64,000 bases of DNA from an uncultured Lachnospiraceae bacterium. GTDB lineage: Bacteria; Bacillota; Clostridia; Lachnospirales; Lachnospiraceae. Made by a program: the position numbers and the translations under genes. The notes under the pieces were generated by a model. It was not told where the DNA came from. It made no database searches and saw nothing but the letters and a program-made list of their open reading frames with translations. Positions 31,309 to 32,967 of this stretch are shown here, piece after piece. The stretch is from assembly GCA_946626215.1 (NCBI GenBank), contig CAMOUD010000001.1, positions 8,968-72,967 on the forward strand, written 5' to 3'. The first letter of the stretch is position 1, and the number at the start of each line of letters is the position of its first letter.

Positions 31309-32967
31309 ATGCGGGGATTTGAAAAGTATCAGAAAGATCCGGCCCTGGGCCTGAAGGACAGACAGTGGCCGGACAGGACCATAGAAAAAGCGCCGGCCTG
31401 GGTCAGCCTGGACCTGGCGGAGTCGGCTCCCATGGCCGGACGGCCTCTGGAGATCCATGAGAAGGCAGAGCTTCTCCGCCTCCTGATCCGCCTGGGCTTT
31501 CGTGAGATCTCGGTCAGCGGCGAGCGGACAGACCCCCAGGCGGCGGAGTTCCTCAGAGCCGTTCTGGAATCCCGTATCCTGCCCGGTTCTGTCCGGCTCA
31601 TGATCGACGCGGGCTCTGTCCCGGCGGATATTCAGAGCGCCCTGGCAATGGCCCGGGGCGTTTCCGGCGTCCTGCTTCAGATCAAGGGCCTTGCCCTGGA
31701 GGAAGAAGCGGGAAAGACCCTGGACCTGGCCCGGGAGGCCGCGGCCCTGGCTTCCTCCTTTCCCGGCGAGGTCTCGCTCCAGTATACGGTGCGGGATTTT
31801 GCCCACGCGGACCTGGAGGTCCTGCTGGGGACCTGCGGGGCCCTGGCCGATCTCTGGCAGGCGTCGCCTGCCCGGCCTCTGACCCTCTGCCTGGCCACGG
31901 ACGTGATGCGGTCTTCCCTCAATGTATACGCCGACAGGGTAGAATATGTGGACCGGAACCTTCCGGGCCGGGACCGCTTTGTCCTGAGCGTCCGTCCCCA
32001 CAGCTGCCGGGGCACCGGCAACGCGGCGGCGGAAATGGCCCTGCTGGCAGGGGCCCAGAAGGTGGAGGGGACCCTCTTTGGCTACGGAGACAGCTCCGGC
32101 CAGACCTCCATCCTGACCCTGGCCATGAACCTCTTCTCGGAGGGAATGGATCCGGGCCTGTCCCTGGAGGACGCCCGGGAACTGGCCGAGACCTGCGAAA
32201 GGATCGGCGTGCCGGGCCCCGAGGGCCGGCATCCATACTTCGGCAAGGAATCCTTCGCGGCCTATTCCCCCTCCCGCCGGGAGGCGGTGGAAAAGGCCCT
32301 GGAAGAGAGAAGGGACAAAGAGGAGATCTGGCGGGTCCCCTACCTGCAGATCGACCCTTCTGATATCGGCTCCACCTTCCTGCCCGCCGCAGGCGCCCTG
32401 CGGGGCGAATCCGCGGCCCGCCTGACGGAGATCCTGGCCGCCCGCTACGGCTTCAAGCTTCCCATGGGCATGCAGGAGGAATTTGCCGGGGAGGCTTCGG
32501 ACCTGTATCCCGGCCGGCGGAGCCTGACACCGGAGGAGGTCCTGGAGGCTTTCCGCGCCTCCTATATCCGCAACAGCGAGCCCATGCACTTCCGCCGCCT
32601 GCAGGTGACGGATGTCAGCGGGGATCTGGAGACGGAATTTGATACAAGGATCCGGGTCTCCTATTCCTCGGGCGGGGAGTTCCATACCTTCCAGGCGGCC
32701 GGCAACGGGCCTCTGGACGCCCTGCAGAGGGGACTGGCGGAACACCCGGGCATCCGGGTCAGGATCCTGGATTATGAGGAGCACGCGCTGAACGAAGGGT
32801 CGGATTCCCAGGCGGCGGCCTATGTCCGTCTGCTGGATCCCGCCACCGGCCGGACGACCTACGGGGCCGGCGTCAGCTCGAATATTACAAGGGCCTCGGT
32901 CCGGGCCGTCTTTTCCGGCCTGAACCGGCTGGGACTCTCCGCGGAGCCCCGACCGGCCCGAAAATAA
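31309..32967 (+). CDS. LeuA (long-form 2-isopropylmalate synthase) family protein with degenerate active site; probable pseudoenzyme
   Basis: 552 aa. Family blocks [92 protein letters not shown]. The catalytic signatures are replaced ([28 protein letters not shown]). Confidence 0.75.
   Translation: [552 protein letters not shown]

Follow-up and report, generated by a model that had tools for sequence, protein, structure and literature searches.

The LeuA-like gene and its neighbours

The window analysed here is a 64 kb stretch (64,000 nucleotides) of contig CAMOUD010000001.1 from an uncultured Lachnospiraceae bacterium (assembly GCA_946626215.1). At 31309..32967 on the forward strand it carries an open reading frame (ORF) of 552 aa, which we read as the positional orthologue of long-form leuA, encoding 2-isopropylmalate synthase (IPMS), and probably as the gene of a LeuA-derived pseudoenzyme. 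This reading is based on the ORF itself, on Pfam and NCBIfam profiles, on alignment with Mycobacterium tuberculosis LeuA (MtLeuA), on synteny and on ratios of nonsynonymous to synonymous substitution (dN/dS). The LeuA-like gene stands among four genes of the same strand, all in their ancestral places. Upstream lie cdaA, encoding a diadenylate cyclase (29445..30329; TIGR00159, 240 bits; DAC and CdaA_N domains), and cdaR, encoding a YbbR-domain regulator (30310..31296; Pfam YbbR). Downstream lie proS, encoding a proline-tRNA ligase of the TIGR00408 type according to profile matches (32988..34427), and cca, encoding the tRNA nucleotidyltransferase that is next in the conserved block (34452..35831; Pfam).

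The ATG of the LeuA-like ORF lies 12 nt past the cdaR stop (31296), and the ORF ends 20 nt before the GTG of proS. Both spacers are exactly as given in a preliminary description of this DNA, and both are too short for a terminator. By sequence read, a Shine-Dalgarno-like AGGAAG (31295..31300, +) overlaps the cdaR stop codon 8 nt 5' of the ATG, and a similar motif, GGAGGA (32976-32981, +), lies 6 nt 5' of the proS start. No glmM, leuBCD or ilv genes and no second leuA were found in the 64 kb window. Likewise, no T-box, leucine leader or other riboswitch in the vicinity of leuA or proS reached the Rfam gathering score, either in the window or at 12 further loci.

Three long antisense ORFs of 840, 868 and 989 aa (24858-27380, 30178-32784 and 32859-35828, all on the minus strand) overlap recD2, cdaR and the LeuA-like gene, and proS and cca, respectively. 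Their translations are of low complexity and rich in Pro, Gly and Arg, and ORFs of this kind are artefacts typically met where a genome has 61% GC and a third-position GC content (GC3) above 0.8. ORF length by itself is therefore no evidence of coding here. The composition of the LeuA-like ORF is coding-like, with a GC3 of 0.80 and a second-position value (GC2) of 0.49. Since identical copies of the protein occur in independent samples, it is not an assembly artefact.

Homology and predicted fold

The preliminary description had taken the product for a full-length LeuA homologue on alignment by eye, and the profile searches bear this out. Pfam placed three modules above the gathering score: HMGL-like at residues 30-294, IPMS_D2 at 316-357 and LeuA_dimer at 406-541. 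A phmmer search against PDB sequences returned MtLeuA (1sr9; E=1.3e-77) over residues 13-541, which is near end-to-end, and the blocks that had been quoted as matching are present in the translation. The AlphaFold model (55 homologues; mean predicted local distance difference test score, pLDDT, of 81) has eight beta/alpha units and a pair of beta-beta-beta-alpha units, and the best Foldseek matches of this model are MtLeuA structures (E~1e-44).

Three parts can thus be distinguished on the forward strand. The first is a degenerate TIM-barrel (HMGL-like) domain of predicted fold (aa 30-294; 31396..32190). It is followed by linker subdomains I and II (aa 295-405; 32191..32523), with low pLDDT at 304-315 and 359-367, and by an essentially canonical LeuA_dimer domain, the leucine-binding regulatory domain (aa 406-541; 32524..32931; Pfam, 85 bits).

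Membership of the curated enzyme families is another matter. The TIGR00970 equivalog model gave 311 bits against a cutoff of 697.4, and the PRK03739 subfamily model gave 352 bits against a cutoff of 455, whereas a canonical positional orthologue (P0012) scored 743 and 817, respectively. No match to an enzyme family other than LeuA was obtained in Pfam, NCBIfam or PDB. The protein clearly belongs to the LeuA lineage by descent; judged by its catalytic residues and its scores against the curated cutoffs, it would clearly not be a LeuA as an enzyme.

Loss of the active site

We transferred the residue numbering of MtLeuA via the 1sr9 alignment, and compared the LeuA-like protein with 107 close canonical relatives that are invariant at the scored sites. 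Of the 16 active-site positions invariant in these relatives, 14 are replaced. The substitutions comprise R80A, D81E, G82S, N83A, Q84P, E218R, H285R, N288S, D289C, E317D, R318S, T319S, N321Q, H379R and Q380R, while H287 and Y410 are retained. In the numbering of the window protein, the former barrel site reads A37 E38 S39 A40 P41, R162, R229-P-H231-S-C and D261 S262 S263 G Q265. In the linker H379 and Q380 have become R323 and R324, and Y410 is kept as Y345. Four new arginines (R162, R229, R323 and R324) line the former active site.

The four erased signatures named in the preliminary description, DLRDGNQ to DLAESAP, HPHNDRGT to RPHSCRGT, YSPES to YTVRD and FSGSHQDA to YSPSRREA, were all confirmed residue by residue, and the alignment added further losses. 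In MtLeuA, D81, H285, H287 and N321 are substrate and metal residues, and GxGERxG, H379 and Y410 form the acetyl-CoA groove (PMC2704214). In the window protein the DRE-TIM signature has lost both R80 and the metal-binding D81, three of the four metal and substrate ligands are gone (only H287 is left), and neither the catalytic Glu218 and His379 nor the GxGERxG groove is present (E218R, H379R, E317D, R318S, T319S). The arginine of the DRE-TIM metallolyases is invariant and essential across the superfamily (PMC11532901). In MAMS, which is derived from IPMS, single mutants equivalent to R80, E218 (A/D), H379 (A/D/E) and Q84 (N) had no detectable activity (PMC11532901; also PMC10464499). Loss of IPMS-type catalysis is, as predicted from these residues, close to certain.

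Conservation of the leucine-binding domain

Conservation is distributed very unevenly over the protein. If positions conserved to at least 97% among canonical relatives are taken as near-invariant, the window protein keeps 56 of 60 (93%) in the regulatory domain, compared with 54 of 111 for the barrel and 30 of 57 for the linker. The leucine site of MtLeuA comprises G531, G533, L535, A536, V551, Y554, A558, A565 and A567 (PMC2704214), which correspond to G, G, L, D, I, Y, A, S and A in the window protein (G465 N G P L469 D470 I486 Y489 A493 S500 A502). At the level of sequence, all of these residues are identical to the consensus of the 107 active in-lineage enzymes. The earlier remark that the C-terminal domain is well kept thus holds, and the N-terminal dimerisation segment is conserved as well.

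Comparison with the sister group (tier 2, described below) gave 38% identity in the barrel (dN/dS 0.58), 37% in the linker (0.66) and 73% in the regulatory domain (0.23). Pairs of canonical enzymes have the opposite pattern, with 81% identity in the barrel and 67% in the regulatory domain.

Relatives and stepwise degeneration

The relatives of the LeuA-like protein fall into three tiers. Tier 1 consists of the window protein and P0002 (81% identity), whose sites are fully degenerate in the same way. Tier 2 consists of ten clusters at 90% identity from at least four species, with proteins of ~539 aa that are 46-48% identical to the window protein. Tier 3 consists of the canonical Lachnospiraceae LeuA enzymes (38-43% identity). 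When 1.84 billion representatives were searched exhaustively with HMMER, no relative was returned between P0002 at 81% and 40% identity. The degenerate form occurs in three GTDB species representatives only (L046, L048 and L055), all of tier 2; tier 1 is absent from them.

The tier-2 proteins are partly degenerate. Their signatures read DLRDRNQ, YT(I/L)(N/G)G, R(P/T)HNDRGM, GERAGS and FSRSHQEA, so that E218, H285 and N321 are missing while R80, D81, H287, H379 and Y410 are retained. At the site of the former E218 the residue varies, being either N or G. Other replacement residues are fixed within the tiers: R229 occurs in 12 of 12 sequences, and R39, T259 and S265 in 10 of 10 tier-2 sequences. 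A tier-2 member (P0004) scored 466 bits with TIGR00970 and 528 with PRK03739, and thus clears the PRK03739 subfamily cutoff. Tiers 1 and 2 were monophyletic in 50 of 50 neighbour-joining bootstraps rooted with an outgroup; these were used because a midpoint-rooted neighbour-joining tree, with its root on the long tier-1 branch, was uninformative. Since H285R is common to both tiers, the metal site was probably lost before they split.

The LeuA-like ORF is intact in tier 1 (two clusters) and in tier 2 (ten clusters; three GTDB species). An apparent frameshift in one tier-2 locus (L055; UBA3287) was rejected, as the break is a scaffold gap of 48 N. In the tier-2 genes the start codon is apparently TTG or GTG, preceded by a strong Shine-Dalgarno sequence, AAAGAGG(G/C)A (L001:8001, L003:10001, L007:10001 and L048 ~7007); the window gene starts with ATG.

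Degenerate active sites are not confined to this clade. Among 86 classifiable long-form LeuA representatives drawn from the best matches, a sample biased toward the degenerate query, 13 have at least two of eight catalytic residues replaced, and most of these have leucine-site motifs. These 13 (P0159, P0164, P0166, P0171, P0182, P0203, P0286, P0252, P0256, P0265, P0210, P0242 and P0303) have lost two to six of the eight residues, and all that bear names are annotated as 2-isopropylmalate synthase. Two of them, at loci L081 and L082, lie in unrelated contexts: one overlaps a gene for a chorismate-binding enzyme, and the other adjoins HSP20 and a two-component system. This pattern of substitutions suggests that active-site loss in long-form LeuA is recurrent. 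The exchange of H285 for Arg is found in several independent degenerate lineages (R229 of the window protein and of tier 2, P0159, P0203, P0286, P0210 and P0242), and may be a recurrent route by which a guanidinium group comes to occupy the emptied metal site.

Selection after the loss of catalysis

We estimated dN/dS by the pairwise Nei-Gojobori method with bootstrap confidence intervals (CI). Between the window and the other tier-1 contig (L002), the LeuA-like gene gave 0.20 (CI 0.15-0.26), similar to the adjacent cdaR (0.19), with 0.21 (CI 0.15-0.30) in the barrel and 0.11 in the regulatory domain. Four tier-2 pairs gave 0.17-0.21 for the LeuA-like gene, 0.08-0.11 for proS and 0.14-0.26 for cdaR. 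Within tiers, the barrel ranged from 0.20 to 0.29 and the regulatory domain from 0.09 to 0.17. In the five degenerate pairs together, the whole-gene CIs reached at most 0.29, and the CI of every domain was far below 1. In each pair the site is dead in both members, so the constraint acted after the loss of catalysis. The LeuA-like protein thus combines homology to an active enzyme and loss of the essential residues with purifying selection after that loss, as is characteristic of a pseudoenzyme.

Between tiers the picture is different. In distant Lachnospiraceae, canonical LeuA (75-77% identity) keeps pace with proS (77%), whereas between the window and tier 2 the LeuA-like protein is 48% identical and proS 83%, i.e. 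the LeuA-like protein evolved ~4-fold faster than proS.

Gene order in related genomes

The position of the LeuA-like gene proved to be inherited. Tier-2 loci have the order uvrA-recD2-comF-x-x-cdaA-cdaR-LeuA-like-proS-cca-HU-S4-divIC-tilS-hpt-ftsH, and the tier-1 contig L002 has it likewise. The two genes immediately preceding cdaA are matched, in all related loci examined, by genes at the equivalent position whose products have 130-140 aa and 333-382 aa. In the window, the first (27936-28367) encodes a 143-aa protein with a weak, sub-threshold DUF996 match as its only hit and no significant Pfam family. The second (28421-29431), directly 5' of cdaA, encodes a membrane-protein-like product of 336 aa, again with no significant Pfam family.

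Canonical leuA occupies the same place. Two loci (L010 and L011) have the order cdaA-cdaR-leuA-proS-cca with spacers of 31 nt and 27 nt around a canonical leuA, and a genome scan found an intact leuA directly 3' of cdaR in 21 loci of named Lachnospiraceae-type genomes. In other loci (L012-L015) the order is cdaA-cdaR-glmM-ptsH-leuA(-proS-cca), again with canonical LeuA; the scan found glmM-ptsH between cdaR and an intact leuA in 16 loci, and several partial contigs agree. A true GlmM is encoded at the locus in L012, L014 and L028-L045. Overall, an intact leuA lies between cdaA-cdaR(-glmM-ptsH) and proS-cca in about 40 Lachnospiraceae species. One further locus (L051; JAILHY010000197.1) has a rearranged block, with ptsH-leuA followed by an inverted glmM-cdaR-cdaA; the linkage of leuA to cdaA-cdaR can therefore be broken while leuA stays intact.

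The preliminary description had noted that glmM is the usual third gene of the Firmicutes cdaA-cdaR operon. This is supported by the literature: the cdaA-cdaR-glmM operon is conserved in Firmicutes, and GlmM inhibits CdaA (PMC8573169). The order with glmM is therefore most simply the ancestral one. Because the loci without glmM keep a canonical LeuA, the loss of glmM from the locus is older than the degeneration of LeuA and independent of it. The LeuA-like gene is an in-place orthologue of housekeeping long-form leuA, and its third-gene position is a by-product of the loss of glmM-ptsH; the adjacency itself is ancestral and older than the degeneration. The LeuA-like protein has none of the PGM_PMM I-IV domains and no similarity to GlmM; Pfam found only LeuA-type domains.

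A functional replacement of glmM, as implied by the earlier phrase "glmM slot", is thus not borne out, since canonical leuA stands in that very place in the 21 loci of the scan and in L010 and L011. The co-occurrence of the degenerate gene with cdaA-cdaR also turned out to be nothing specific: the adjacency is shared with active leuA, and no association of the LeuA-like protein with cdaA-cdaR beyond inherited synteny was found. The adjacency is not unique to this genome, yet, as an active enzyme holds the same one, the cdaA-cdaR neighbourhood is uninformative on the function of the LeuA-like protein.

The cdaR-to-LeuA-like spacer is longer in tier 2 (135-160 nt), and in all four tier-2 species examined a hairpin is conserved there that ends in a U-rich tail, AATCGTTTGnACCG...CGGGACAAACGATT-UUUCU (L001:7876-7925, L003:9870-9920, L007:9927-9970 and L048:6920-6960). 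Folding gave energies of -21 to -25 kcal/mol and z-values of -3.1 to -5.3. Neither the window nor the canonical locus L010 has this hairpin. The hairpin may be a terminator or attenuator; as a simple consensus terminator scan did not flag it, we call it terminator-like only. Its presence suggests that the cdaR unit and the LeuA-like gene are not obligatorily co-transcribed in tier 2, where in two loci (L007 and L048) there is scant room for a promoter 3' of the hairpin.

Interpretation and alternative explanations

The explanation that best fits these results, to which we assign a probability of roughly 0.6, is that a leuA orthologue lost catalysis in situ and now encodes a folded protein under purifying selection, a LeuA-derived pseudoenzyme. 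Its core, a protein that is catalytically dead yet selected, is highly probable. That its role would be leucine sensing, as the conserved leucine-site residues might suggest, is more tentative and falls short of an even chance.

The course of events starts from the family order cdaA-cdaR-glmM-ptsH-leuA-proS-cca, which is most simply ancestral. One sub-lineage then lost glmM-ptsH from the locus while leuA remained intact. Within this sub-lineage, a narrow high-GC clade probably lost the metal site first, as the shared H285R indicates, and then split into the partly degenerate tier 2 and the fully degenerate tier 1 of the window. The barrel and linker evolved fast on the path between the tiers (dN/dS ~0.6), and within each of them the whole protein is under constraint again (~0.2). 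Many rumen bacteria obtain leucine via reductive carboxylation of isovalerate or by uptake, and IPMS catalysis could thereby become dispensable; of the related loci, many derive from metagenome-assembled genomes of the ruminant gut. Given that constraint is strongest on the regulatory domain, and that the leucine-contact residues and dimer-forming elements are kept, the protein most likely still dimerises and binds leucine. It would then have a non-catalytic, leucine-dependent role, for example as a sensor or regulatory subunit, with the dead barrel serving as scaffold or output surface.

Several points weigh against this reading. The dN/dS values are pairwise Nei-Gojobori estimates at dS of 0.4-1.1. 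The barrel is itself under purifying selection (0.20-0.29), so the constraint is not confined to the regulatory domain, and the barrel could hold a new role. Moreover, tier 1 is known from two sequence clusters only.

The alternative that survives best, though we regard it as improbable, is that the dead protein is the regulatory subunit of an active LeuA or CimA paralogue, to which it would contribute a leucine-binding interface (and, in tier 2, H379 and Y410 in trans). LeuA is described as a domain-swapped dimer in which the accessory and regulatory domains lie against the partner chain's catalytic domain (PMC9860122). The conserved dimerisation segment and regulatory domain fit such a partnership, as does tier 2, which keeps the acetyl-CoA-groove residues outside the barrel and loses residues inside it. 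However, H379 is lost in tier 1 as well, and no second long-form LeuA was found in the three tier-2 GTDB assemblies with the patterns RILDYEEH and EGTLFG, a search limited by the completeness of these assemblies and by its reliance on motifs.

Less probable still is a re-tooled enzyme, in which the barrel carries out a different reaction or uses alternative residues. The purifying selection on the barrel, the fixation of replacement residues within each tier and, in tier 1, the arginine-lined site could all be read in this way, and the five residues retained in tier 2 (R80, D81, H287, H379 and Y410) make it more plausible there than in tier 1, where it is unlikely. Yet the window protein lacks the superfamily-invariant arginine, three of four metal and substrate ligands, the glutamate, the catalytic histidine and the glutamine that positions acetyl-CoA, and single mutations at four such residues kill a related enzyme (PMC11532901). 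The Glu218 site varies in tier 2, as would be expected once it no longer took part in catalysis, and only LeuA matches were obtained in Pfam, NCBIfam and PDB.

The gene might also be a neutral relic, with leuA dispensable (e.g. in a leucine-rich gut or rumen niche) and an unbroken pseudogene ORF surviving by chance at high GC. The erased active site and the ~4-fold acceleration relative to proS are in line with this, and chance antisense ORFs of 840-989 aa in a window of 61% GC make ORF length weak evidence. We nevertheless consider a relic very improbable: the CIs of dN/dS are far below 1 for every domain in five independent pairs, with values like those of neighbouring cdaR; frameshifts and stops are absent across lineages at dS >1; and the regulatory domain keeps 93% of its invariant positions in a gene of coding-like composition.

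The least probable alternative is the coupling proposed in the preliminary description, in which a dead LeuA in the position of GlmM links branched-chain amino-acid status to c-di-AMP via CdaA/CdaR: the tight third-gene placement with no terminator in the window, the usual occupation of that place by a CdaA inhibitor (PMC8573169), the absence of glmM from the window and the intact leucine-binding domain speak for it, but canonical leuA is equally adjacent in 21 loci and in L010 and L011 (with glmM-ptsH interposed in at least 16 more), glmM was lost before and independently of the degeneration, a terminator-like hairpin follows cdaR in tier 2, and the protein without GlmM similarity sits in a long housekeeping synteny block. 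Of that earlier proposal, a ligand-sensing pseudoenzyme tied to c-di-AMP, the retained pseudoenzyme stands (dN/dS 0.20) and the coupling, explained by inherited synteny, falls away.

A bolder extension of the pseudoenzyme reading, which we hold to be rather unlikely, would be that leucine-sensing pseudoenzymes arose from long-form LeuA more than once, the one in the window by in-place conversion, that its conserved regulatory domain reads leucine, and that the re-surfaced, arginine-lined barrel binds a new anionic ligand or a protein partner, possibly CdaA/CdaR or ProRS/CCA of the same operon. If this were true, Lachnospiraceae would possess a hitherto unrecognised amino-acid-responsive regulator, and the 13 independently degenerate representatives among the 86 would form an overlooked class under the label "2-isopropylmalate synthase".

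Comparison with known systems

The closest system is long-form LeuA itself (M. tuberculosis type; PDB 1SR9/3FIG; TIGR00970, PRK03739). The window protein shares with it the three-part architecture, the predicted fold, an alignment from end to end, the leucine-binding domain and Y410, and its gene has the chromosomal position of the active Lachnospiraceae enzyme. Unlike these enzymes, it has 14 of 16 invariant active-site residues replaced, including the metal site and the catalytic Arg, Glu and His; it lies below both curated HMM (hidden Markov model) cutoffs, evolved ~4 times faster than expected and has an inverted pattern of domain conservation.

HisZ offers the nearest functional analogy. 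It is described as an inactive HisRS paralogue that acts as the histidine-sensing regulatory subunit of the ATP phosphoribosyltransferase HisG(S) (PMC9734150). Both are proteins of amino-acid pathways that lost catalysis and kept an amino-acid site, with an allosteric role in HisZ; the analogy concerns how the window protein may work. The fold and family of HisZ are unrelated, its partner is known and its function has been demonstrated. Furthermore, HisZ is a paralogue, whereas in the window it is the orthologue itself that degenerated, in situ.

The cdaA-cdaR-glmM module of Firmicutes resembles the locus in that the window gene is third after cdaA-cdaR at tight spacing. It differs in that the window protein has no GlmM homology, and in that cdaR of relatives is followed either immediately by an intact leuA or by glmM-ptsH and then an intact leuA. 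Like the window protein, plant MAM, IBMS and citramalate synthases are IPMS derivatives that discarded one of two functional modules (PMC11532901). However, what they gave up was the regulatory domain, while catalysis was kept or re-tuned; the window protein is the reverse.

A full-text literature search found no description of an IPMS/LeuA pseudoenzyme or inactive homologue and none of a link between IPMS and c-di-AMP. The case is a natural example of an allosteric enzyme whose catalytic half was lost while the effector-binding half is under selection. The route from enzyme to pseudoenzyme can be traced, as intermediates occur in sister species and an active, ancestor-like form occupies the same locus in relatives. 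It has a practical side too: public records label the degenerate LeuA-like proteins "2-isopropylmalate synthase", and metabolic reconstructions would wrongly assign the first step of leucine biosynthesis to these organisms. As to method, it is a cautionary case, in which tight adjacency to cdaA-cdaR resembled functional coupling and proved to be inherited synteny.

Other features of the window

The remainder of the window contains a few further features. The only tRNA gene of the window, which is also its only Rfam match, lies at 9249-9321. The ptsH of the window (~49715-49980) lies between a PTS EIIBCA gene (47646-49511) and ptsI (50015-51655). At 4146-6266 lies a gene for a type III glutamine synthetase, and next to it come trkA (6284-7645) and trkH (7650-9122); potassium uptake systems are classic targets of c-di-AMP.

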